Of a stretch of DNA of 64,000 nt, positions 10,278 through 62,595 are shown piece after piece. Numbering within the stretch: the stretch's first letter is position 1; every line of letters begins with the position of its first letter. The DNA comes from Bdellovibrionales bacterium (GTDB lineage Bacteria > Bdellovibrionota > Bdellovibrionia > Bdellovibrionales > JAUICD01), in contig CBDANC010000012.1 of NCBI GenBank assembly GCA_965197425.1, positions 64,001 to 128,000 on the forward strand. Direction: 5' to 3'. The notes under the pieces were generated by a model. That model was not told where the DNA came from. It made no database searches and saw nothing but the letters and a program-made list of their open reading frames with translations. Made by a program: the position numbers and the translations under genes.

Positions 10278-10430
10278 ATTATCCCTTCGTGAAATATCAA
10301 GTGAAATACTAAGCGCAACACTAACACCCAACAGAGACCATTACAAGTATCAACAACCAGGCACTGTTCTCACATCGAGGCACTTTTAGCACATGAGACT
10401 TTCCTTATCTGATTTAAAGAAATTACATTA

Positions 10431-11042
10431 AAGGTCTTCCAAACTAAGGCAAAAACAAGTGGACTTGTTCACTTTTTTTGACTTAGTGGTTGCCCAGCTC
10501 CGGAACACGATGCCAATCCCGTCACTTAAGGTTTTCCAATGAGGCCGATAAAAGTTGATTGGCGTAGCAGATGTGCAAAGCACGAAGCGAAGCAAAGAAA
10601 CTTTTTTGGCCGAGTGGTTGCCCAGCTTTGGACACTGATGCCGATCCCGTCACTTAAGGTCTTCCGAATGAGGCAAATAAGGGAAGCTTTGCTTTCCTTG
10701 GTTCAATTGGCTTACGGGATAAACCTTTATATTATCCAATTGAAATAACCTCCCTGCGGTCGGTTTTTACCGAATGGCTGTTTCCTGGTGGACCTCACAG
10801 CTAATACTGTCACTATAAACTATTTTACATAACCTTAGGTTATTATTGCAAAATTCATCCATCTATGCTACAAAAGCACTCAAGACAATCAGCTCTACTC
10901 GCTTTACTTAAAAACCAAGAGTTACAGGATCGGCATCGTGTTCCAGAGCTGGGCAACCATCAAACTAAAAGATGTCTTGGCTACATTTGGACTTTGTCTT
11001 ACATTTCACCAATCTATCTTTTAGCTTGATTAGGAAGACCTT
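10431..11042. repeat. Family-1 mosaic repeat, locus C: three tandem units plus one inverted unit; contains the 66-bp element at 10698-10763
   Basis: Starts AAGGTCTTCC and ends GGAAGACCTT; GTGGTTGCCCAGC frame repeated. Confidence 0.92.
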
Positions 11043-11055
11043 ATACTTATTTTAT

Positions 11056-14000
11056 ATGTACATGTATTTAAACTTTACTTTTAGCCTAACTAGAAAAATA
11101 GCACCTCTGTTATTTTTTATTCTCTCCTTCACCAGTGGAGTATCCACCACCAGTGGAGTATACACTTCTGCTCATGCTCAACAAGGTCTAGGTGAATTTG
11201 ATACCTTCACAGATCCTAGTACAACTGATCTTAGATTAGCAGAAAATGCAGTATCTTCATGTGAGGTGTTACAGGAAGTTGCTAAAATTGAAGCAAACAG
11301 TCTATCTTCACAAGAATTTTTCAATAAACTACAAAAGACAGATTCTAATGGAAATTTATTAATTGATACTGAAGATTGTACTGAAAGCATACTTCAGTTT
11401 GTATCATCTCTATGTTCCTCTAATTCAAATACCAACAGGTCATTTTGTAACACCCTTGGCTTCAGTGTGGTTACACCACTCGTAGTGGATACTCCACTGG
11501 TGGTGGATACTCCACTCGTAAATATTAGTAATACTGGTGAAGGTGACTACAAATCTTATGGTAGTTCTGCCCTAGAGAGTTTAGATTTAAACAATTCCAA
11601 TGTTCAAGTTCAACATCCTGATAATAATCCCACATTATCTAACGAAGGAAGTTCTACATTTTCTATAGCAGGACTTCTTTTTTCATTTACTCCCATTAAA
11701 AGATTAAAACTAGCAAGAAACCTAACAAGATCAAACTTAGTAACCTCTAGGATAAAGCCTGTTTTAAATGGAGCTATGTTAATACTAGCTACACTAGGCT
11801 TATCTTCATGTAGTGATGTAACAGAGCCTGAGCCAGTCCCAATAGTAGAAACTCCCTGTACTAGAGGAGAATCAGGATATTTTCAGCTAACTGGTGGCAC
11901 TAACAGTGCTGGTGGTACTAACAGTGCTAGTAATTGCATACAGCTCATAGACCCTCCTACAGTTAGTTATCTTGATAGTGAAGGTAATGTTGTTACGAAC
12001 ACAAATGATATCTCAGATCATTCTATAAAAGTAACATTTGAAGAGCCTGTAAGCTTCATTAGTACAAGTGAGCATGGAAATCTAACTTCCGAAAATGTGG
12101 TTAAGATGGTTGATATAAAGTTAGGCAATGTAGATCTTTTAGATGTTGGATTTGTTTTTACTATAGAGGTTTCAAGTGATGAGGCATCTTTCACTCTGAC
12201 TCCGAAAACCACCTATCCTGCTGGAGATTATGTAGTTGGTGTAAGTAACTATGCAAAGAAGGCTGATATATCTAAGATAGCTGCTAGTACTAACAGAGCT
12301 CAGTATCTTAGCAGGGTTAATGATATGTCACAGTCTTTGTCTTCTTTCAATGTACACACCCCCTGCAGTAGAGGAGAGGAAGGTTATTTTGAGCTTCAAA
12401 ACTCAAGTGTTATGACGGATTGTATTAAGCTTACACTTCCTACTATTAGTTATCTTGATGAAGAAGGTAACACTGTAGAAGATACATCTACAATCTCAGA
12501 TCACTCTATAAAAGTAACCTTCGATGGGAGGGTCAGTTATATAGACTCTTCTCGTTATGAAGGTCTAACAGCGGCTTTTGCAAGAAACATGATAGAGTTA
12601 AACATAAACAGTGAGAATTTATTAACTGGTACTTTTAGATTTCAGATAGAAGCTGGAGTTGAAGAAGATGAAAGCTCATTTTTTATCTTAACTCCAATTT
12701 CAAGTTATCCTGCTGGAAGTTACTCAGTAAAAGTAAAAAACTATGTTAGCTCTTCAGATGCTTCAAAGATTGCAAATGCTACTAATACAGAAAACTATCT
12801 TGCACTAATCAACAAGGAATATTCTTCATTTTCAACACCTAATATTAGCACTCTGTGTGAAGAGAATGCTTCTGGATACTTTGAGCTAACAAATGAAAAT
12901 GGTTCGAAGGACTGCATTAGAATTCCTCAAGTGGTGTTTACTTTTACCCCTAGGGGTGGAAGAGAGATGATCGAGTCAAACTTTGACCCGACTTCAGTTA
13001 TAAAGATTTATTTTGATTTAGAGGTAGTGTATTTATCTGACTCCGGTGAGTGGCGAGAGATTACCAAGGAAGATATTTTAGAGATGGTAGAAATTTCTGT
13101 AAAACCTGAATACAGCTCAAGAAAGGTTGATCATGTGAATACGGATGGTGCTATAGGTTTGGACCTAGTATCGGTAAGTCATGTTGGAGGTAAGACTGTT
13201 ATTACCATAGATTCTCCTTATGATCACACACATGAAGATGGAAGGATCTATGGTTTTCATGTCCCTTATAATATTATAGTCACAAACTTTGCTAAAAAAA
13301 CTGATGTATCTAAAGTTGCAAGTAGTAGCTCTATTAACTCTTATTTAGAGGACACCGCAACCTTTTATCAAGGAATACATGGTGGGCTGTATAAGCCAAC
13401 CTCTTGTGATCTAGGATATGCACAATCTGCCGCAAATTATGATCAGTATAATGATGCAGAAGAGTTAGATCACTTTATATGTGAGACTGATAAGATGCTG
13501 GATACATTTTTACCTCCATCAGGAGACATTGCCTTTGATATGGCAATGTTCGATGCAAATAATGATGCTGATATGACTCACTTAGAAAAAACCGATCCTG
13601 GTACAAGGCATGTTATTGATCTTGCGTTTGTTACTTCGGATGTTCTTTTTGAAAATGCTAGTGGTGATTGGCGTACATATTTCGAAGATAAAGTTATTAA
13701 AGGCTTAAACAAGATGTTTCAATACTCCGGGGTGAATGTTGAATTTAGAGTTTCTGTGATTGGCCCTTTTTCTGATTATAGAGGGTATTTGTATTGTGAT
13801 CTCCCTACCATAGAAAACGTAGTTAACCCTCAAACTGGGCTTGGAAGCGAAGCACAAGCTATTTCAGAATTAATTCCGATCATTCGCAAAAAACATCCTG
13901 TTGATATATTTGTTGTAATGGTTCCATATGGTGGAGGATATGCGGTGATAGGTGATGGTCTTAGACACTTCCCTGTTTCAGCTAGATGGAGTTCTTCACT

Positions 14001-17700: not shown

Positions 17701-19310
17701 TCATCAGCAAAGGAACTAGGGTTGTTTACATCTCTCCAAACCTTACCAATATTCCTAAAGTTCAATGTCAATTCATCAGCATAATCACTAAGAGTAGTAT
17801 GAGCATTACCATCAGGCTTAGTAGGGATAGAATCAGCAGCACCATACTTATAACCAACATTTAAACCAGGGTTGTTTTGAAGAGGGTGAGTTGTGGAAGC
17901 TATAAAATCATTAGAACCATCTTTAATCTCTCTGTCATGGTGAACATATACAGGTCTTCTAGATGGAGGAACTGCAAAGCTGTTAGCATAAGCAAATAAC
18001 TTATTTGACTTACAGGATCTTTCTAACTTATCCACACCAGGTCTTGTTTTAACTTCAACAAATAACTTCAAACCTACATCTGACCTCATCTGGGCTGAAG
18101 TTAGACTCCTCTCCAGCTTATAACCAATCTTATTCTGTCTCTCTAATTCGTTGGTGCCTAAAACACTATCTGTAATGTATCTATCGTACTTAGAATGAGG
18201 TCTTAGAAAGACTGCTGGATGAACCTTAGTATCAGTACAACCAAGAGCACTACGATTAGATAAACTCCAAGGCCTTATACCTATCTTCACATCATATGGC
18301 TGAGCAGTATTAGTATAACTAGTACTATAATCAGTAAAACCTGCTAAGAGATGCAAATTTAAGGCATTTTTGAGACTCTTGGATAAACCATATAAGTACT
18401 CAGAGGTAAAAGTATCCCAAGCATAATGATTAGAAGATAAATTAGCATCAGCCATTTCCTTATAGTAATCAGGTTCAGGTCCTGGAGTTGCTGGTTTTAC
18501 ATCATCTAGCTTCTTATGTAAGTCTATCAGCTTAGCAGTGTTACCAGCCTCGTAGGTAATCACCATATCATCGGCAAGATCAAAGGTCAGGTTATCTACA
18601 TTAGATGGACATATGGTAGAACGATACTCGTTAAATAAATCTTCTACTAAACTAACACCACTACCTCTATGAAACTTATCTACTTTCAAAGTAATGTGAC
18701 TATTACTACCATGAGGCTCTATAACAAGATTAGGACCAGCATTATGAGTAGCCTCTCCACTAGTGTTTACAGATATAGTGCTTCTTTCTTCTATAGCTGC
18801 TTCAAAATCAGTAGGAGGAGTACCAGGAAAGTGTTCGGAGTTAAGCAAAACAATAGGTTCTAAGCCACCCTGAGAAAATCTCTCCATTACATTAGTAGCT
18901 ATAGCTGCACATTCATAGGAATCATCAGTCAACTTAGATGCCGTGTTCATCTGACCAGATATAAATGTAACTACAAAACCAGATATGGATACTAAAGCTA
19001 AACCAACTACAGTCTCTATTAAAGTAAAACCACCACCTTGCAGGTGGGGGCATTTACCACCAGTAGAGTACCCACCACCTTGCAGGCGGAGGCATTTTAA
19101 TAGAGGCTTAAACAAACTTTTATTCTGTTTGAAATATGCATTATTTAAACGTAACTTTAAACCTCTATGCGGAATTTTAGAGGGGGGGGGTACAGCTAAA
19201 TATTCGTTATTACTAGTGTTTTTAGTATTAGCTTCTTTATCAGCAACTCCACCAACAGCACTACTGTCAATACCCCTGTGAGAGTTTTTGTTTCGAAAGC
19301 CCCATCCCAT
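14709..19310 (-). CDS. Giant type IV pilin/pseudopilin-like protein with a long Cys-rich C-terminal region (start uncertain)
   Basis: G|FTLIETVVGLALVSISGFVV class III signal; dense Cys repeats over the C-terminal half; poly-Pro hinge. Confidence 0.8.
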   Translation of the reverse strand: MGWGFRNKNSHRGIDSSAVGGVADKEANTKNTSNNEYLAVPPPSKIPHRGLKLRLNNAYFKQNKSLFKPLLKCLRLQGGGYSTGGKCPHLQGGGFTLIETVVGLALVSISGFVVTFISGQMNTASKLTDDSYECAAIATNVMERFSQGGLEPIVLLNSEHFPGTPPTDFEAAIEERSTISVNTSGEATHNAGPNLVIEPHGSNSHITLKVDKFHRGSGVSLVEDLFNEYRSTICPSNVDNLTFDLADDMVITYEAGNTAKLIDLHKKLDDVKPATPGPEPDYYKEMADANLSSNHYAWDTFTSEYLYGLSKSLKNALNLHLLAGFTDYSTSYTNTAQPYDVKIGIRPWSLSNRSALGCTDTKVHPAVFLRPHSKYDRYITDSVLGTNELERQNKIGYKLERSLTSAQMRSDVGLKLFVEVKTRPGVDKLERSCKSNKLFAYANSFAVPPSRRPVYVHHDREIKDGSNDFIASTTHPLQNNPGLNVGYKYGAADSIPTKPDGNAHTTLSDYADELTLNFRNIGKVWRDVNNPSSFADDEEDFRGVFLCGFDKSSFEDCVKGPPDCDDIAGLSSYRPFGNGGVHKLGIRRSGTEYGSTDGSTSSPRWDLCENFKLTSSQPNRASLIASLSSVDDGKLGLELDNLNVSSWPDEDQDADYRVRFKLVDEYGNDYSATENGQIQSDDYTEEHRVFAYNCAQFGNTHASGIYATPPKNCGVTNPDPNIAKYNRRIDNPFYNARSDCEHTFNLLLGNGITNGTSSCVKLSNIRIYNNYFDDSIEERTGPANSPVRPVNGTGVTCDYWVEQCVNDGTACVQCGQGYMRDYPETTRQSCHGGSASLGGVTCYKAGVNCCSGVNNYNPFLCPTGGPCTNCSHPLDSLNRTVDRSCPSSVSCGFNEDPTCGATCNTNGLGCGICTGATPCNTPNCFSCSFGTPGVCQYKCGGGTPYCDGASNCVECLNDGHCGGDICCSYSCRAPCNASSNNCEECHGPCSSPVNRCSGGKVCDGSGGCVDPPPPPPPPPVCTPNPCPTGQTCCPDNQCRTNCCSVACDDDGDCNAGKTCQDAGQCSASCVTCVGGVGCNSDADCPGGVCQGAGNCGSSCCPVTCNSNSDCGAGKSCSDAGTCSSSCVDNPCPSGQVRCGAICKTPTCSGAGDCAVPTPTCQNPGTCTSICVTCSGAQPDCAATCQAVICGSGGWECDTSSGCPTGENCCTGVNPPVCKAPCVANNAACEQCADNCASPTSKCVPPQICNGSGTCYIPQTCGSRITDPECQQCTDPNSTTEIPRNKSGGCRSCGICNGGICNEPSTCPPCSGTPPTCDSDNCETAQCKNGSWVCEQGPSTCTANPATCTTCPKLCGTPVTGQPTCVSNTATCTTCDKPCGTPQTCPPGTTCDGSGGCVPVCSTPCSSNADCGCGGTCDAGTGCCTSTGPTCSGATPNCCPGSPPTCKASCGVTCGSGSMSGYPNTSDPSCNATSRSESGVECWTNTNCGATEVCDCCPWQCTEIRCENHHDCPTPYQCTVNVFDASMTGHCYTI

Positions 19311-21865: not shown

Positions 21866-22265
21866 AAGGTCTTCCGAGCGAGGCCAATAAAGTGAACTTG
21901 TTTGCTTTTTTCAATTGGCTCACGGGATAAATTTTTATATTTTCCAATTGAAATAACCTCCCTGCGGTCGGTTTTTTAATAAAGGTGAGGTTAATGAGGC
22001 CAAAAACAAAGTGACTTTGTTGCTTTTTTTTGGCCGAGTGCCTGTTTCACCGAGTGGTTGGCTTCATGCCCAGTACTGGGCAACCACAAGGCTTTGAAAA
22101 TAGGCAAAGCCTCCTTATTTTTTACCTCGTTCGGAAGACCTTATGGAACGGGATCGGAATCAGTGTCCAAAGCTGGGCAACACTGAGTTTAGAAGATGTC
22201 TTGGTTACACTTGGACTTTGTCCTGCATTACACCAATCCATCTTCTAGACTCATTTGAAGACCTT
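21866..22265. repeat. Family-1 mosaic repeat, locus D: head-to-head units; 66-bp element core at 21910-21971
   Basis: AAGGTCTTCC...GAAGACCTT inverted ends; modules shared with C, H, J, O. Confidence 0.92.
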
Positions 22266-22282
22266 GAGTATAATCATAAAAA

Positions 22283-29829: not shown

Positions 29830-30039
29830 TGGATCAGCTGCGAGTTCTATCAGGAACTTGAGTTGCTGGATCAGAATCGTGTCCAAAGCTGAACAACCTC
29901 TCAGATAAAAAACCGGCTGCAAAGGAGGTTCATCCAATTGGATAATATAAAGATTTATCCCGTAAGCCAATTGAACCAAAGTGAACAAGTCCACTACGAG
30001 TGGAGTATCCACTTGTTTTAGCCTCGTTTGGAAGACCTT
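29830..30039. repeat. Family-1 mosaic repeat, locus F, carrying a variant of the 66-bp element (29913-29979) and an 18-bp element (29995-30012)
   Basis: Aligns to 51762-51916 with an extra TACGAGTGGAGTATCCAC. Confidence 0.9.
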
Positions 30040-31927: not shown

Positions 31928-32611
31928 TCAGCCTATAGAAGATAAAATCTCTAAAACAGTTTTTTTAGGATCATCACTTTTTAAAATAGCTCTACCCATA
32001 ACCAGTGCATTTGAGCCATTTGAAATAGCTAGAGCAGGTGTAGAAACCCTGCTTTGATCTATATATTTTGTAAATCCAATACCAGGAGTTATTATATTAG
32101 CATTTTTATATTTAGCTCTTAATGCTCTAGCCTCTAGGCTGGAGCAAACAATTGTATTTAAACCAGACTCAAAAACCAAGTCAGTTAAAATCATAACATG
32201 CTCCTCTACATTCAAAGGCTTCCAATTACCCGGAAAATCATCTCTAATACTAGTCAGAACAGTGACACAAGCTATGTGAAAGTCTCTTTTTTTCGAAAAA
32301 TCTGTTTCAAGCTTTTTTAATTCTTTCAATACCGAAAGACCACAAGAAGCATGAACTGTAACTATACTAGCACCTAAATCATAACAAGCTTTCACGCTAG
32401 CCAGTACCGTGCTTGGAATATCATAAAACTTAAAGTCTAAAAAAACAGGGGCAAGCTTAACAAATTTACTCACATCAGTTTTAAAAAAAAGCCTAGGACC
32501 AATTTTAAAAGCCCCAACACAATCAGCTAAACTGTCAGCTAAATCCAAAGCCTTTTTGGGGTCATCTAAATCCAACGCACATATAATTGGATTTTTTAAA
32601 TTTAAACTCAT
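31928..32611 (-). CDS. pyrF: Orotidine-5'-phosphate decarboxylase
   Basis: ICALD, FLDFKFYDIPSTV, VTVLTS, TPGI, VMGRAI. Confidence 0.93.
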   Translation of the reverse strand: MSLNLKNPIICALDLDDPKKALDLADSLADCVGAFKIGPRLFFKTDVSKFVKLAPVFLDFKFYDIPSTVLASVKACYDLGASIVTVHASCGLSVLKELKKLETDFSKKRDFHIACVTVLTSIRDDFPGNWKPLNVEEHVMILTDLVFESGLNTIVCSSLEARALRAKYKNANIITPGIGFTKYIDQSRVSTPALAISNGSNALVMGRAILKSDDPKKTVLEILSSIG

Positions 32612-34326
32612 GCCTTAAAAACTTTCTCTTTAATAACAGAAACTATATCATTAACACTGACCGAATTTCTCTTAAGAGTTTTTCTATCTATTAACTCCAC
32701 CTCTTCTTTATCAAAAGACCTTTTACCTAGATTAATTCTATAAGGAATACCCAATAAATCTGCATCATTAAACTTAACCCCTGCTCTTTCATCTCTATCA
32801 TCCAACAACACTTCAACATCAGAATCCAAAAGTTCAGAGTATATCTTATCAACACACTTCGATACCTTAGAATCCTTAGCATCTAAATTACAAATATGTA
32901 CATGATATGGGGCAACCCAAAGGGGCCAAATAATGCCCTTATCATCGTGACTTTGTTCAACTATAGTCTGCATTGTCCTAGAAACACCGATTCCATAACA
33001 ACCCATTTCAAAAAATCTGCTTTTTTGATCTCTATCCGAAAAGGTAGCATTCATAGCCTTGGAATATTTAGTACCTAAATAAAATATATGACCAACCTCA
33101 ACTCCCCTGTGCTCTTTGTATTTCCCTTCACAAACAGAACATACATCACCTTCCTTGGCACAAACTAAATCAAAAAACCCTTCTATATCAAAGTCTCTTT
33201 TGTAGTTAACATTTTTTAAATGAACTCCATCCTTGTTAGCGCCAGTGACAAAATTTGTCATATTTTGAAGTGAATAGTCTAAATATGTCTTTACACCATC
33301 TAAACCAACAGGGCCCCAACTGCCAGGAACACTACCTGTCAACTCCTCGACCTCTTCGTCAGACATCAGCTGCACATCACTATCCAAAACCTTACTTAGT
33401 TTTAAGGTATTTGCCTCATCTGAACCTCTCAATAAAACCAATATAGGTTTTCTATCCTTGTCATAGAAAAACATGCTTTTAACTAATACGGGTGGAGTTT
33501 CCACATCTGATTCATCTACTTTTAAAAATTTTCCAAGCTGGGCAATAGTTCTAATACCAGGTGTATCAAAACTTGAAATTTCTAATAGGTTAGATCTGAC
33601 ATCCTTAACGAGTTTACCAACAGGAGCGATCTCCATATTGTAAGCATGAGAGTTACATAATAAAATTGTATCCTCACCTGCACTGGTCACCGCATGAAAT
33701 TCATGTGACTGATTTCCACCAATGTTTCCTGTATCTGCTTCAACCACTTTAAAGTTTAAACCAACTCTATTAAAAATTTTTGAATATGCTTCGTACATTT
33801 TCTGATAACTAACTTGAGCAGCGTCTTTGTCTACATCAAAACTATAGGCGTCTTTCATTATAAATTCTCTACATCTCATCAAACCAAACCTAGGCCTTAT
33901 CTCATCACGATATTTGGCCTGAATATGATAAATATTTTTAGGTAGATCCTTATAACTCTTAATTTCACCTCTAACTAAATCAGTAACCACTTCTTCATGT
34001 GTAGGGCCTAAACAAAATTCCTGATTATTTCTGTTTTTAAACTTTAAAAGAGACTTGCCCATCACACTCCATCTGTCAGCTTCATCCCATAAAGATTTAG
34101 GCTGAACCATAGGCATCAAAACTTCAACACAACCAGCATGATCTAGCTCAGCTCTAATTATATCTCCTATCTTATTTAAAACACGTAAGGCCATATTATG
34201 ATATGTATAAATTCCAGGAGCTACTTTTCTAATAAAACCAGCTTTCAACAAAAGAGCTTCACTAACCAATTCCACATCAGAAGATACATCCCTCCTGGTA
34301 ACTATATGAGAACTAGACCACTTCAT
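32608..34326 (-). CDS. proS: Proline--tRNA ligase (bacterial type with editing domain)
   Basis: LGPTHEEVVT, KYRDEIRPRFGLMR, EVGHIFYLGTKYS, MGCYGIGVSR. Confidence 0.96.
   Translation of the reverse strand: MKWSSSHIVTRRDVSSDVELVSEALLLKAGFIRKVAPGIYTYHNMALRVLNKIGDIIRAELDHAGCVEVLMPMVQPKSLWDEADRWSVMGKSLLKFKNRNNQEFCLGPTHEEVVTDLVRGEIKSYKDLPKNIYHIQAKYRDEIRPRFGLMRCREFIMKDAYSFDVDKDAAQVSYQKMYEAYSKIFNRVGLNFKVVEADTGNIGGNQSHEFHAVTSAGEDTILLCNSHAYNMEIAPVGKLVKDVRSNLLEISSFDTPGIRTIAQLGKFLKVDESDVETPPVLVKSMFFYDKDRKPILVLLRGSDEANTLKLSKVLDSDVQLMSDEEVEELTGSVPGSWGPVGLDGVKTYLDYSLQNMTNFVTGANKDGVHLKNVNYKRDFDIEGFFDLVCAKEGDVCSVCEGKYKEHRGVEVGHIFYLGTKYSKAMNATFSDRDQKSRFFEMGCYGIGVSRTMQTIVEQSHDDKGIIWPLWVAPYHVHICNLDAKDSKVSKCVDKIYSELLDSDVEVLLDDRDERAGVKFNDADLLGIPYRINLGKRSFDKEEVELIDRKTLKRNSVSVNDIVSVIKEKVFKA
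33487..33504. mobile_element. 18-bp palindromic element inserted in frame in proS
   Basis: TACGGGTGGAGTTTCCAC, 16/18 identical to 29995-30012; encodes VETPPV. Confidence 0.8.
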
Positions 34327-34385: not shown

Positions 34386-34711
34386 AAAAGCAAAGCTTCC
34401 CTTATTTGCCTCGTTCGGAAGACCTTACGGAACAGGATCAGCATCGTGTCCAGAGCTGGGCAACCACTCAGTCAAAAAACCGACCGCAGGGAGGTTATTT
34501 CAATTGGATAATATAAAGATTTATCCCGTGAGCCAATTGAACCAAAGTGAACAAGTCCACTTATTTTTGACTTCGTTCGGAAGACCTTACGGAACAGGAT
34601 CAGCATCGTGTCCAACGCTGGGCAACTATCAAGTTAAAAGATGTCTTGGTTACATTTAGACTTCGTCTTACATTTCACCAATCTATCTTTTAACTTGATT
34701 AGGAAGACCTT
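34386..34711. repeat. Family-1 mosaic repeat, locus H: tandem units; 66-bp element at 34480-34545
   Basis: GGAAGACCTT three times; ACGGAACAGGATCAGCATCGTGTCCA twice. Confidence 0.93.
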
Positions 34712-39351: not shown

Positions 39352-39720
39352 TCATGTATTTTTCCATAATTGGTATAGAAAGCCTCCTAGCACATCTGCC
39401 TCTTCTATTAGTTCTTTGTGGTCTATGAGATCTAGTATAGCTTGCGTTTCTCTGAGCGAGTCTAAGCTTATTGCATAGAATCTTTTTCTATCTTTTGCTG
39501 TAGGTTGGTTCAATTGGCTCACGGGATAAACCTTTATATTTTCCAATTGAAATAAACTCCCTGCGGTCGTTTTTGCACTTCCCTCCGCAAGGTTAAGTAG
39601 AACACTCAAAGTAGCTCTTTGGAATTGGTTTTTGAGGGGTTCTTTTAGCCAAAGTTTTTTTGATTCTCGATAAAACTCTTTAGCTATTTGGTATGTTTTT
39701 AATTTTTTTGGAAAAATTAA
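39352..39720 (-). CDS. Four-helix-bundle protein (23S rRNA IVP/Avd-like fold) with a 22-aa in-frame insertion; start unclear, possibly a pseudogene
   Basis: LKTYQIAKEFY...LKNQFQRATLSVLLNLAEGSAK[insert]PTAKDRKRFYAISLDSLRETQAILDL. Confidence 0.8.
   Translation of the reverse strand, partial: LIFPKKLKTYQIAKEFYRESKKLWLKEPLKNQFQRATLSVLLNLAEGSAKTTAGSLFQLENIKVYPVSQLNQPTAKDRKRFYAISLDSLRETQAILDLIDHKELIEEADVLGGFLYQLWKNT
39505..39570. mobile_element. 66-bp palindromic element inserted in frame in the four-helix-bundle gene
   Basis: Absent from the paralog at about 54626; the same unit occurs at seven intergenic sites. Confidence 0.92.
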
Positions 39721-39796
39721 AGATACTACCGGTTCCTGGTGGCGGATGCCAGATGCAGATAACGGATCCCTGACTGCCGGGTTGCCTGAATACCTA

Positions 39797-41194
39797 TTAT
39801 AATCTGTTAAGTAATTTTTGGTATATATTTCCAAATCCACCATTACTCATAATTAACACTATATCGTTGGGATTAGCATTTTGTAAAATTATAGAAATTG
39901 CTGCTTCAACATCTTTTGCCCTAAATGCAGAGACAACTCCAGAATTTTTAATATCATTAACTAGCAACTCAGTATCCAACAAACTTGTGTCACTAGGTTT
40001 TGCTATTACATCACAAATAATGCAAAACTGTGAGTCACTAAAGGCTTTGAAATATTCTTTTTGAAACACACTCCCCCTGGATGTAAAAGATCTAGGCTCA
40101 AAAACTGAAATTACCTTTCCCTTACATTGTTGTTGAAAAGCATCAATAGCATGTTTAACAGCTGTGGGGTGATGTGCAAAATCATCAATGATTGTGATCT
40201 TGTTTTTTACTCCTACTACCTCAGCCCTTCTTTTTACACCTTTAAAACTCAAAAAAGCTTTTTTGATGGATTGTGAAGAAAGCCTTAACTTTTTTGATAA
40301 AATATAAACCGCAGTTGCATTTAAAATATTATGCCTACCAAACATTTTTAATTCTATTGTTTCCTTAGAATTATTATGGTTTATGGAAAACTGTACACCT
40401 TTATTTTTTATGCAAATATCCTCAATCACATAATCTGCATTTTCAAATCCATAAGTTATGGCTTTGGTATTTGCCTTTTCCAAAACGCCCAATACATTTT
40501 TATCAGCATAAGCCACAATCAACCCATCTTTTTGAATTTTTAGAAGCGATAAAAATGCACTCTTAACCGCATCAATGTTGGGGTAAATATCTTGGTGATC
40601 AAATTCTATAGAAGTTAAAATTAAATGGTTGGGTTTATAGTGCATAAATTTAGGAATTTTATCAAAAAATGCACTGTCATACTCATCACCCTCTATAACA
40701 AAATATTCAGCTCCAATACTTGTTTTAAGTTGCTTAGAAAAATTATTACACACACCACCTATAAAAAAATCTACATTTTTATTAGAAGAATCCAAAACCC
40801 AAGACATAAGCGAAGCGATAGAAGTCTTGCCATGAGTTCCTGCTATTACAATATTTTTGGTTTCAGACATAAACGATTCACCTACCAGGCTGGCAAAACT
40901 GGTATAAGCAATATTACTGGATAAAAGAGCCCTTGATTCTTCATAGTTTTTTGTCATCACATTTCCAACAACCACAAGATCAGGGTTATGAGATAAATTT
41001 TCTCTTTTAAAACCTTGCATAATATCAATACCAGCATCAGCTAATCTGAGAGACATTGGAGGATATACATCTGTGTCACTACCTGTAACTTTAAAACCCA
41101 AATTTTTAAGTTCACAAGCAAGGCTTGCCATGGCAGTACCACAAACTCCCATGATATGAACCTTTGAACCTTTTTTTAAATCTCGTACATTCAT
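39797..41194 (-). CDS. mpl: Murein peptide ligase Mpl (MurC-like)
   Basis: GVCGTAMASLA, YPPMS, AGTHGKTS, EGDEYDSAFFDK, DDFAHHPTA, FEPRS, MSNGGFG. Confidence 0.9.
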   Translation of the reverse strand: MNVRDLKKGSKVHIMGVCGTAMASLACELKNLGFKVTGSDTDVYPPMSLRLADAGIDIMQGFKRENLSHNPDLVVVGNVMTKNYEESRALLSSNIAYTSFASLVGESFMSETKNIVIAGTHGKTSIASLMSWVLDSSNKNVDFFIGGVCNNFSKQLKTSIGAEYFVIEGDEYDSAFFDKIPKFMHYKPNHLILTSIEFDHQDIYPNIDAVKSAFLSLLKIQKDGLIVAYADKNVLGVLEKANTKAITYGFENADYVIEDICIKNKGVQFSINHNNSKETIELKMFGRHNILNATAVYILSKKLRLSSQSIKKAFLSFKGVKRRAEVVGVKNKITIIDDFAHHPTAVKHAIDAFQQQCKGKVISVFEPRSFTSRGSVFQKEYFKAFSDSQFCIICDVIAKPSDTSLLDTELLVNDIKNSGVVSAFRAKDVEAAISIILQNANPNDIVLIMSNGGFGNIYQKLLNRL

Positions 41195-46317: not shown

Positions 46318-46575
46318 AGGTCTTTCCCGGAATGACCGATTGCCCGACTGCCTGATTAGATCTGGGATCTGGCATTCGGGGATCCGTTACCTGCATCCGC
46401 CACCAGGCACCTGTTTGCCAGATTGCCCGATTGCCTGACTGCCAGAATAACCGTGCCGTAGGCACAAACACATGCACCCGTAGGGTGCCGCCTTGCAGGC
46501 GGAGGCATTTAATGGTGGTTGAACATACACCGTGTTCTGTATTTCACCAGCCAAATACCTGCACCCGTAGGGTGC
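46318..46575. repeat. Family-2 mosaic repeat, locus K: 7/8-mer runs, four-helix-leader segment, GCACCC-GTA-GGGTGC hairpins, 24-bp unit at 46487-46510
   Basis: Shares long segments with 61530-61729 and 47478-47590, and in reverse with 39720-39794. Confidence 0.9.
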
Positions 46576-47432
46576 TAGTCTCTTTGTCCGAATCTTAGTT
46601 TTGATCTTAGTATTTCTAGTTGATTGGTATTGTGTGGTAGTAGCATATGGTGAAATTTATTTGAATGTTTGATTAAAATTTTATCTTTGTATGTTAAGTC
46701 AATTTGTCTGTATCCATCTATCATAAAGATAGCTTTTTGTTTTTCTTGTGTTAATTGAATTTGTATTTGGCTGGTATCTGGTATTGTGAGTGGTCTATTT
46801 GTTAGGCTGTGTGGGCAAATAGGTGTAATTACGGTTGCTGGTATTTCTGGGGTTAGTATAGGTCCTCCTGCTGATAGATTATAGGCAGTGGAACCAGTTG
46901 GAGTGGCCACTATTAAGCCATCTGCTTTCAGATCACAAAGCAAGGTATCATCTATTTTGATTGCCATGGATATAAGTCTACTAAAGCTACCTCTTTCAAA
47001 CACAATATCATTTAGAGCCAAAATTTTTCCATTACTGAATTTATCTTTAGAATTTATTAGGCTAATTTCTAGCATTGAGCGTTTGGATACAACAAGTTTA
47101 CCTTCTAATGCCTCAGTGATTACCTTAATTAAATTGTCTGATCTAGCTTGAGTTAAAAAACCTAAGGATCCCATGTTAATACCCAGAACAGGTATTTGAG
47201 TGTGAAATCCAAGCATTCTTACGGCATTTAGGTAGGTACCATCTCCACCTAATACTACAACAAGCTTAAGTTTTAGCAAAATTTTGTCAGTAAGTTTGGC
47301 AGTATCTTTAAGAGGGGTTTGTTCAGGATGATGATAACAAGTACAGCCTTTATTACTAAGCCATTTAACTATTTCAAAGGATTTATCTAAAACCTCAGGT
47401 TTATTGGGTCGGTATACTATCGCAATGTGCAT
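46575..47432 (-). CDS. nadK: NAD kinase
   Basis: LGGDGTYL, GINMGSLGFL, ALND, DGLIVATPTGSTAYNLSAGGP. Confidence 0.95.
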   Translation of the reverse strand: MHIAIVYRPNKPEVLDKSFEIVKWLSNKGCTCYHHPEQTPLKDTAKLTDKILLKLKLVVVLGGDGTYLNAVRMLGFHTQIPVLGINMGSLGFLTQARSDNLIKVITEALEGKLVVSKRSMLEISLINSKDKFSNGKILALNDIVFERGSFSRLISMAIKIDDTLLCDLKADGLIVATPTGSTAYNLSAGGPILTPEIPATVITPICPHSLTNRPLTIPDTSQIQIQLTQEKQKAIFMIDGYRQIDLTYKDKILIKHSNKFHHMLLPHNTNQLEILRSKLRFGQRD

Positions 47433-53950: not shown

Positions 53951-54500
53951 AACAAATAAGGGCCTTGGGGTTAATAAGGAGATAACCTCTGAAGTTTTAA
54001 GGGTTATTGGTCCAGATGGAACGATGTTTGGAGTAATGAAAAAGCAAGATGCAATTAATCGTGCAGAAGATTTAGGTCTTGATTTGATAGAGGTTGCACC
54101 CAACAGTGATCCTCCCACTTGCAAGATAATGAATTATGGCAAGTATAAATATGAGCAAAAAAAGAAAAATCAGGAGGCAAAAAAAAGACAAACTATAATT
54201 ACTGTAAAGGAGATAAAGTTAAGGCCTAGAACAGATACTGGCGATTTGCAAACAAAGTTAAAACATACAAGAAAATTTTTAGAGCAAGGGAACAAAGCAA
54301 AAATTACTATTAGGTTTAGAGGCCGTGAGATGGCACATCAGGAAATTGGAAAAGACCAATTAGATAAAGTGATGAAAGCTTTAGAGGATATATCTGTTGT
54401 AGAGGTTGAGCCAAAAATGGAAGGAAGACAAATGTTTGCTATGCTTGCACCTAATCCTACTGTTTTAAAAGAGTTAGCCAAAAAGAAATCAAAAGCATAA
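53931..54500 (+). CDS. infC: Translation initiation factor IF-3, probable non-canonical ATC start
   Basis: The frame is open 31 codons upstream of ATG 54024 (..VNKEITSEVLRVIGPDG), back to ATC 53931 after AGGAGG; LDLIEVAP, YGKYKYE, FRGREMAH. Confidence 0.9.
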   Translation: MRLRRNRTNKGLGVNKEITSEVLRVIGPDGTMFGVMKKQDAINRAEDLGLDLIEVAPNSDPPTCKIMNYGKYKYEQKKKNQEAKKRQTIITVKEIKLRPRTDTGDLQTKLKHTRKFLEQGNKAKITIRFRGREMAHQEIGKDQLDKVMKALEDISVVEVEPKMEGRQMFAMLAPNPTVLKELAKKKSKA

Positions 54501-54780
54501 AGGTCTTCCGAGTACATCTGCTTCTTCTATAGGGTTTTTGTGGTCTATGAGATCTAATATAGCTTGTGTTTCTCTTAGTGAACCTAAGCTTATTGCATAG
54601 AATCTTTTTCTATCTTTTGCTGTTGGCTTTGCACTTCCTTCTGCAATATTTAGTAGAATGCTCAAAGTAGCTCTTTGAAATTGATTTTTGAGCGGTTCTC
54701 TCAGATAAAGGTTTTTTGAGTTTTTATAAAACTCTTTAGCCAGTTGGTATGTTTTTAATTTTTTTGGAAAAATTAGGGAT
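54499..54780 (-). pseudogene. Second four-helix-bundle gene, 3'-truncated by a family-1 end
   Basis: Closely matches 39352-39720 without the 66-bp insert; after ADVLG the sequence switches to GGAAGACCTT. Confidence 0.75.
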
Positions 54781-54811
54781 ATGACAGATTTCTGTTGCCG
54801 GATCACAGATA

Positions 54812-61529: not shown

Positions 61530-61729
61530 CCAACTACCCAACTGCTTGATTAGATCCGAGATCTGGCACTCAGGGATCTGTTATCTGCATCTGGTATCCG
61601 CCACCAGGCACCTGTTTGCCAGATCACTGACCCCGAGCCCGTTTAATCTAAAAACATACATCATATTTTGTACTCCACCAGTTAAATACCTGCACCTGTA
61701 GGGTGCAAATACCCGCACCCGTAGGGTGC
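61530..61729. repeat. Family-2 mosaic repeat, locus P (inside the dpp operon)
   Basis: ATCCGCCACCAGGCACCTGTTTGCCAGAT shared with K; two tandem 23-bp AAATACC(T/C)GCACC(T/C)GTAGGGTGC units. Confidence 0.9.
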
Positions 61730-62595
61730 TATTTTTTTAGTCTAGGGTCTAACGCATCTCTTAGTCCATCTCCTAGTAAGTTAAATGCTAGTACTACTAT
61801 TAGTATACACAAGCCTGGTAGTGTAACTAAGTGTGGTGCACTTTCGATATATGGTCTTGAGTCTGATAGCATTGTCCCCCATTCTGCTATTGGTGGTTGA
61901 GCGCCTAAACCCAAGAAACCAAGTGCAGCGGCATTTAATATTCCATCGCTAAATCCTAATGCGCCTTGAACTATTAGAGGAGCAGTACAGTTTGGTAGTA
62001 TGTTAGAAAAAATAATTCTAATATTAGGTGTTCCATAAGTTTTGGATGCTATAACATACTTCTTTTTTTTCTCAGCCAGTGCACCTGCCCTGGCTAATCT
62101 AATAAACCCAGGTAGAGCCACAAAACTTACGGCTACAATAGTATTTAGCAAACTAGGTCCTAGAATGGATACTACAACAATAGCAAGTAATATACTGGGT
62201 AGGGCCATTAATATATCTACAAGCCGCATGATTGCCTTATCTAACCAACCACCAAAATAACCTGATATCAAACCTAAAACTGTACCAACACTCATTGAAA
62301 ATAATACAACTAAAAATCCAATTCCCATAGACACTCTTGCTCCATGAACAAGTCTACTTAGCATGTCTCTGCCAATTTCATCAGTGCCTAATATAAAATT
62401 ACCTCCGTCCCAGAATGGAGGGCTTATATGAGAATCAAAGAGTCTATTTTGTTCATAAGGAGCGATTAAATCTGCAAATAGAGCTACAAATACAAAAAAA
62501 ATCACAACAAAAAGGCTAAATAAAGCACCTTTACTGCTAGAAAAGTACTTCCAAAATTCTTTAAACGGTGAAGGAGGCGTATGTAGATCAGACAT
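61729..62595 (-). CDS. dppC: Dipeptide ABC transporter permease
   Basis: LGTDEIGRDMLSRLVHGAR, GFLGLGAQPP..EWG, NLLGDGLRDALDP. Confidence 0.92.
   Translation of the reverse strand: MSDLHTPPSPFKEFWKYFSSSKGALFSLFVVIFFVFVALFADLIAPYEQNRLFDSHISPPFWDGGNFILGTDEIGRDMLSRLVHGARVSMGIGFLVVLFSMSVGTVLGLISGYFGGWLDKAIMRLVDILMALPSILLAIVVVSILGPSLLNTIVAVSFVALPGFIRLARAGALAEKKKKYVIASKTYGTPNIRIIFSNILPNCTAPLIVQGALGFSDGILNAAALGFLGLGAQPPIAEWGTMLSDSRPYIESAPHLVTLPGLCILIVVLAFNLLGDGLRDALDPRLKK

Follow-up and report, generated by a model that had tools for sequence, protein, structure and literature searches.

A mobile hairpin of 18 nucleotides in proS and across a Bdellovibrionales genome, possibly moved by topoisomerase I

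The prolyl-tRNA synthetase (ProRS) gene in the window, by which we mean the whole 64-kb stretch of DNA analysed, carries a copy of an 18-nt hairpin that occurs in this genome as 131 units at 81 sites. Sequence comparisons indicate that this hairpin is a real mobile element, very small, recent and compatible with coding; to our knowledge, it is shorter than any known mobile element. It inserts without target duplication, mostly 3' of the tetranucleotide C-N-N-N on one strand, and we tentatively propose, with a little less than even confidence, that the host topoisomerase I (TopA) excises it and ligates it as single-stranded DNA.

A copy of the element in proS

The site in proS is defined by the following features:

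32608..34326, minus strand: proS, encoding a 572-aa prolyl-tRNA synthetase with an editing (INS) domain (NCBIfam PRK09194, 719.7 bits)
33487..33504, minus strand: 18-nt element copy in proS, translated VETPPV; empty in X3, filled in X4
33483..33486, plus strand: target tetranucleotide CTAA, with the C at 33483 lying 4 nt before the junction
33501..33504, plus strand: element end CCAC, with the C at 33501 lying 4 nt before the other junction
33478..33480, minus strand: codon of K283, the invariant editing-domain lysine, three residues past the insert

The minus-strand letters at 33487–33504 are GTGGAAACTCCACCCGTA, which are read in frame as VETPPV and correspond to ProRS residues 275–280. The first-pass annotation had taken this DNA for a copy of a repeat that landed in the gene without flanking duplication. 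We observed that it differs from the unit at two positions (16/18 identical) and keeps an intact 5-bp stem (GTGGA/TCCAC) around the loop AAC, followed by the tail CCGTA; the absence of a duplication was confirmed in the flanking sequence. The landing itself is supported by empty alleles in a ~97%-identical strain and in the sister species, and by nine other sites with exact 18- or 36-nt gaps in paralogues. In the strain, the evidence comes from one X3 contig of 568 nt (depth 4.6, 19 substitutions) that is 18 nt shorter across the site, while an X4 contig of 935 nt (depth 2, 31 substitutions) retains the insert. A metagenome scan returned ProRS matches at 41–49% identity and nothing else.

The alignment of ProRS sequences, from which a unique 6-aa insertion had been expected, upheld this expectation for the sequence but not for the length. 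Between the invariant T255 and K283 there are 29 residues in this protein, and 23 (69/79), 24 (9/79) or 29 (1/79) in its homologues. Judged by this alignment, the length at the VETPPV site is not strictly unique among the 79 homologues, whereas the sequence is. The lone homologue with 29 residues (L030) is about 50% identical, and its DNA is unrelated to the repeat. A relative of equal length lacking the repeat DNA, which had been named in advance as evidence against an insertion, was therefore found in 1 of 79 distant homologues, the other 78 being 5–6 residues shorter; the unrelated 6-residue extension of L030 shows only that this loop of ProRS tolerates lengthening. The explanation that VETPPV is an ordinary loop expansion resembling the repeat by chance could draw on L030, which is extended at that same place, and on four weak motif matches elsewhere that turned out to be chance. 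It is almost certainly wrong, being at odds with the 16/18 identity, the intact stem and the presence of the target C, and contradicted by a closely related strain, whose allele lacks exactly these 18 nt.

K283 is conserved in 80/80 aligned ProRS rows and, counted along the alignment, pairs with K279 of the S. aureus enzyme (5znj), which shows an equal 6-residue gap opposite the insert. We take K279 of E. coli ProRS to be the equivalent of K283. In the excerpted text of PMC3973320, the K279A variant of the E. coli enzyme is described as editing-defective. The AlphaFold model of the protein (mean pLDDT 94.6; TM 0.89 against E. faecalis ProRS 2j3l) positions VETPPV in a loop between helix 261–268 and strand 280–288, with a pLDDT of 78 for residues 271–280. 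Mapping on the structure, as the annotation had suggested, thus depicts the insert as a predicted loop extension three residues before the editing-domain lysine. Since proS, with an open frame, encodes the sole full-length ProRS in the assembly (G000), and the insert recurs in a second strain, we infer that the enzyme tolerates it.

Structure and host range of the element family

The repeat reaches further than the first-pass annotation had recognised, the copy in proS being one of the 81 sites that share a common target rule. A profile search detected 124 units in the genome and 0 in the reversed genome. A structure-aware search detected 135 units at 85 sites and, at the seed threshold, 0 matches in the reversed genome and in G001, a genome of the same genus; four of the 85 sites align without gaps to G001 and were dropped as chance matches, which left the 131 units at 81 sites. 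For the analysis of targets, six sites with near-identical flanks were removed (n = 75). The window alone contains 7 matches to the unit at ≤3 mismatches, against 0.01 expected. Sites hold one (50), two (17), three (9) or four units (5).

Each unit consists of a 5-bp stem enclosing the loop N-A-C and of a 5-nt tail, Y-N-G-T-R, and is predicted to form a DNA hairpin of −3.4 kcal/mol. Four loop and tail bases are nearly invariant: A7 (128/131), C8 (131/131), G16 (128/131) and T17 (126/131). The stem pairs 1/13 (GC, CG), 2/12 (TA, CG) and 5/9 (AT, TA, GC, CG) covary (p = 2e-4 each, 85 distinct units, uncorrected for kinship). This is support for selection rather than proof of it, because the subfamilies share ancestry and covariation can also be imitated by palindrome repair. 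For the sixth pair, 14/18, which would close a dumbbell circle, covariation was absent (p = 0.15).

We found 61 matches to the element in G000 against 0 in G001, and 91 in G000 against at most 11 in any of 400 genomes of the phylum; the 11 loose matches of the best of these include 7 from one 12-nt tandem run. A species collection, which may not include this genome itself, gave 13 scattered single exact matches, and three viral loci matched the unit, one of them a 45-nt tandem repeat. By these searches the element is lineage-specific among the genomes covered, with nothing above chance in the sister species or the 400 phylum genomes. Rfam recognised three tRNAs in the window and nothing else.

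Location of the copies

Besides proS, the window contains these sites:

29995..30012, minus strand: one unit lying inside a ~96-nt intergenic repeat; 18 nt missing from an X3 contig
11130..11165, minus strand: two-unit array, antisense in the gene of a 1200-aa secreted protein, TSGVST-type peptides; C6 paralogue with an exact 36-nt gap
11467..11520, plus strand: three-unit array in the same 1200-aa secreted protein gene, VVTPLV-VDTPLV-VDTPLV; paralogues with 0 and 1 unit here
19058..19075, minus strand: one unit, GYSTGG frame, close to the beginning of a 1533-aa gene

An 85-aa ORF over 29995..30012 is probably spurious. In the whole genome, 71 of the 81 sites fall inside crudely called ORFs (47 ORFs, a few of them spurious), and ORFs cover 88% of the genome. 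Of the 56 sites with a reciprocal orthologue in G001, 20 show a net gap of exactly 6n residues and 8 come within 2 residues of this, the remaining ones being different (17), unalignable (6) or absent (5). In orthologues with at least 50% identity, extra segments of 6, 12 and 18 residues occur 28, 12 and 3 times in G000 vs. 7, 3 and 0 times in G001.

The genes that bear the element include those of ProRS, TopA and GcvP; further putative carriers, recognised by motif only, are TyrRS, GlnRS, ObgE, YchF, fumarase and GuaA. In gcvP (L225:492-3470) there are five element sites with 10 units and the frame is open, and topA (L226:591-3098) has one unit in its C-terminal region. The element uses five reading frames, and the frame that includes a stop and tryptophan is nearly empty. 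Frame counts match the target preference plus stop avoidance (p = 0.17, or 0.04 if stop avoidance is omitted; 62 sites), and selection for frame is unsupported once both are accounted for. Genic sites show no bias between sense (33) and antisense (38). The sites cluster, with a median nearest neighbour at 508 bp vs. 6,605 expected, and neighbouring copies are weakly similar (p = 0.03–0.05 at 5–60 kb).

Evidence of mobility

At the nine sites with paralogous empty alleles no duplication accompanies the gap, and one site has 0, 1 and 3 units in three paralogues. Among contigs of related strains (~3% diverged), those of X3 have no unit at proS or at window position 29995; the X4 and X6 contigs lack it at C13:42874; an X6 contig skips 36 nt of a triple array; and an X4 contig has an additional identical unit at C13:42942, a tandem duplicate. 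These strain comparisons are single low-depth contigs from three studies, and an empty allele may be ancestral or the product of precise excision. The mean difference between units of one array is 2.7 nt, with just 4/74 pairs identical, which favours serial insertion, but the identical duplicate in X4 shows that slippage or self-reinsertion occurs too. Target duplication was unsupported at the insertion sites, where flank repeats measure 0–1 nt in 63/75.

A target rule with a C at position −4

When targets were read on the strand ending in the hairpin, a C was found to open the four bases before the insertion in 55 of the 75 non-redundant sites (p = 8e-26), and its frequency is high in every frame class. 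C(−4) is the sole strongly fixed target position; the context is AT-rich and poor in G (31/375 at −3 to +2). On this same strand, the element's own end keeps the C in 121/131 units and in 78/81 outermost units, this base having been a scoring criterion. Since the C is equally distant from the junction at the target and at the element end, one specificity, C-N-N-N with joining after the fourth base, fits both junctions and turns every copy into a target for further insertion. The proS site follows the rule at both junctions, with C at 33483 and at 33501.

The flanks are otherwise unlike the element, which argues that C(−4) is not microhomology; flank microhomology as the basis of insertion was unsupported, the resemblance being limited to one base. 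The target C is absent in 20/75 sites, and also from some empty paralogues. T at −2 (26/75), T at −1 (21/75) and A at +1 (27/75), that is, the TT/A part of the E. coli motif TCNTTA, are not enriched.

Topoisomerase I as a candidate mobiliser

According to excerpts of PMC3467081, PMC9352719 and PMC9960139, bacterial topoisomerase I cleaves with a C at −4 in an AT-rich patch. The pocket for this base is formed by R169, R173 and Y177, and the R169A substitution changes the preference to A (excerpt of PMC3467081). G000 encodes a single type IA topoisomerase, in which RRILDRLVGY at residues 152–161 fits the spacing of R169/R173/Y177. The shared C(−4) rule, the presence of one TopA with this motif and the lack of a detected dedicated mobiliser together suggest that TopA would free the unit and re-ligate it as single-stranded DNA. 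One nick would fall at the target C-N-N-N that stays behind and a second at the CCAC/CCAG end of the element, together releasing exactly 18 nt, either linear and enzyme-linked or as a small circular molecule; insertion would follow by strand exchange at another place nicked by TopA. As the start of the element would again be a target, arrays could grow from one side, aided by slippage, and the six-codon length would allow copies to survive within protein loops. The invariance of bases in the loop and tail points to an additional recognition factor.

Several observations count against TopA. The need of the enzyme for C has been described as strict, and yet 20/75 sites do not have it; the C(−4) of the element lies inside the stem, which TopA would need to melt; the near-invariant loop and tail bases go beyond what TopA explains; and TopA of G001 is 72% identical although G001 is devoid of the element. 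One conserved base is weak evidence for the identity of an enzyme. Within the largely open-access literature searched, there was no precedent for TopA-driven insertion, and nothing relevant was found on such a repeat in Bdellovibrio. The full reading, in which the hairpin is a parasite that TopA excises and reinserts as single-stranded DNA without any transposase, scattering 6-residue loops through the proteome, is one that we consider possible but doubtful. If true, a housekeeping enzyme of universal occurrence would drive a class of mobile DNA of its own, and the movement of SDR- and RPE-like repeats lacking a known mobiliser could be explained in a way that is open to testing.

In the search for dedicated enzymes, G000 gave no match to PF01797, NF047646, PF00078, PF00589, PF02371, PF01867 or PF04480, and Y1, RAYT, reverse transcriptase, tyrosine recombinase, IS110, Cas1 and DUF559 were all undetected in it; Y1/RAYT had 0 matches in G001 as well. 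The lone GIY-YIG match of G000 lies in a 612-aa frame shared by G001. G000 is a metagenome-assembled genome, 99% complete in 15 contigs, and may miss a mobile enzyme. A DDE transposase on contig C11 was rejected, as C11 has no element sites and carries a second ribosomal operon; DDE enzymes normally duplicate their target.

Three other observations concern the assembly. Tyrosine recombinases, even XerC/D, were undetected in G000 and G001 (1.6 Mb each), whereas 14/14 control genomes gave matches. The second operon on the element-free C11 is an S10 ribosomal operon, and this contig is probably from another organism. By eye only, C9 resembles an animal transposon region and C10 a phage fragment.

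Alternative routes of spread

The main rival to TopA is an HUH enzyme. The hairpin would then be a minimal REP-like element, moved by a Y1/RAYT-type transposase that the assembly lacks, that was recently lost, or that a phage or plasmid provides in trans. Duplication-free insertion 3' of a short motif is a trait of IS200/IS605, the invariant loop and tail bases fit a specific binder, and Y1 genes are present in 2/4 other genomes of the family. The Marinomonas group 3 REP in the excerpted text of PMC8266576 has an identical arrangement of a tag, 2 nt and a 5-bp stem, and because of this resemblance we keep the HUH enzyme in consideration, though it is on the whole unlikely. Neither G000 nor G001 contains a detectable Y1/RAYT, the tag is other than GTAG, the junctions fall elsewhere than CT/CA, and just one target base is fixed. 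Moreover, guide–target covariation was not detected (best p = 0.009 in 84 tests on 75 sites, with limited power), and there is no replication-strand bias: 26 sites are leading and 31 lagging (three contigs, 57/81 sites placeable), or 45 vs. 40 by local skew.

Movement by short RNA or cDNA pieces, patched into nicks by the host ligase, or by TopA acting on the target side only, is improbable. Most copies lie within genes and are transcribed, the hairpin is conserved, and G000 has about 20 four-helix-bundle (PF05635) genes that are absent from G001, with a fold that we take to be related to the reverse-transcription helper Avd; such a spread has reportedly been proposed for the SDRs of Nostoc. 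Against it stand the failure to detect a reverse transcriptase in G000, the equal use of sense and antisense, and ends so precise on both sides that they require a cutter. Enzyme-free template switching of the polymerase onto a nearby hairpin copy, with slippage producing the arrays and quasi-palindrome repair the apparent covariation, would account for the clustering of sites, the identical tandem duplicate in X4 and the weak likeness of neighbouring copies. It is nonetheless quite improbable, in view of the fixed unit length, of flanks that resemble the element at one base only, and of array units that are rarely identical.

Comparison with known repeat systems

The closest known systems appear to be the SDRs of Nostoc and the RPEs of Rickettsia, and the element fails to qualify as a member of either, as it does for the REP, IS200/IS605 and MITE classes. 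Elhai et al. (2008) reportedly found in Nostocaceae SDRs of 21–27 nt with compensated hairpins and insertion into their own copies. In excerpts of PMC2884548 and PMC5861425, SDRs are about 20 nt, dispersed, in short tandem groups and thought to be mobile, with no known mobiliser. Our element shares the dispersal, the tandem copies, the hairpin with compensatory changes, the lack of a known mobiliser and, probably, insertion into its own copies; compared by description only, it differs in its length of 18 nt, its phylum and the location of most sites in genes, and in targeting a single C at −4 where SDR5 targets HIP1. SDRs, also treated in PMC3116915 (excerpt), are confined to the Nostocaceae according to PMC5861425 (excerpt), and the host of our element is outside that family. 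Rickettsia RPEs are palindromic repeats found in frame in housekeeping genes and translated as an extra peptide, about 150 bp long with a conserved peptide (excerpt of PMC10969869). The in-frame property is shared, with gaps of 6n residues exact at 20/56 sites and within 2 residues at 8/56; in contrast, our element measures 18 bp, is read in five frames and occurs in arrays.

As in REP/RAYT and IS200/IS605 systems (excerpt of PMC8266576), a short hairpin stands beside a conserved tag, duplication is absent and the target is kept next to the element. However, the GTAG tag 5' of the hairpin is replaced by YAC-N-R on that strand, the sites are mostly in ORFs rather than extragenic, and the cognate Y1 transposase has no match in G000 or G001. 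A non-autonomous IS200/IS605-type element would likewise insert 3' of a short motif without duplication, but the replication-tied orientation of that group was not observed. MITEs have terminal inverted repeats and duplicate their target, whereas this element is an asymmetric hairpin with a tail. TopA cleavage sites agree with both junctions in C(−4) (55/75 targets, 121/131 ends) and AT-rich context, and the pocket residues with the RRILDRLVGY motif of the host TopA; of the in vivo E. coli motif TCNTT/A, only the C and the AT-richness fit, and the literature searched does not describe TopA as a mobiliser.

No enzyme is known to move very short bacterial repeats such as SDRs and RPEs. The element reported here has exact polymorphic sites and a target rule suggestive of a specific enzyme for which a specificity-switch mutant exists, so that the way such repeats move can be tested directly in vitro and in E. 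coli. The copies also constitute a natural linker-scanning experiment, in which housekeeping proteins have received dozens of insertions of 6–24 residues, that in ProRS lying three residues from the editing lysine.

Other repeats and multi-copy genes

A modular intergenic repeat of ~96 nt occurs in tandem groups in the window (34395–34710, 10420–11040 and 21880–22270) and genome-wide (145 head-motif matches). In its downstream flank the same rule, here as a G at +4, may be weakly present (11/34, p = 0.03, repeat boundaries being uncertain); a looser count of the C(−4) rule at this repeat, 39/71, was discarded as inflated by repeat heads. Nested in it is a 66-nt module with 55 matches (window 39482–39575 and 34474–34545), which is in frame in some four-helix-bundle genes, adding 22 residues, and is missing from other-strain contigs at C13:40430. 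The PF05635 four-helix-bundle genes are flanked by 8-nt tandem repeats (window 39355–39843 and 54492–54806, about 20 loci in G000) and were not found in G001.

Another intergenic repeat, of ~85 nt (window 46465–46590 and 61683–61742), contains a hairpin whose loop is TAC, with N-N-G-T-A after it. Its inner stretch equals positions 6–16 of the 18-mer, and by this likeness it is possibly a parent or sister family. Finally, where the giant pilin-like genes begin (window 19030–19075 and paralogues), the 18-mer is accompanied by a 24-nt unit that has a CACCT/AGGTG hairpin and a variable copy number.
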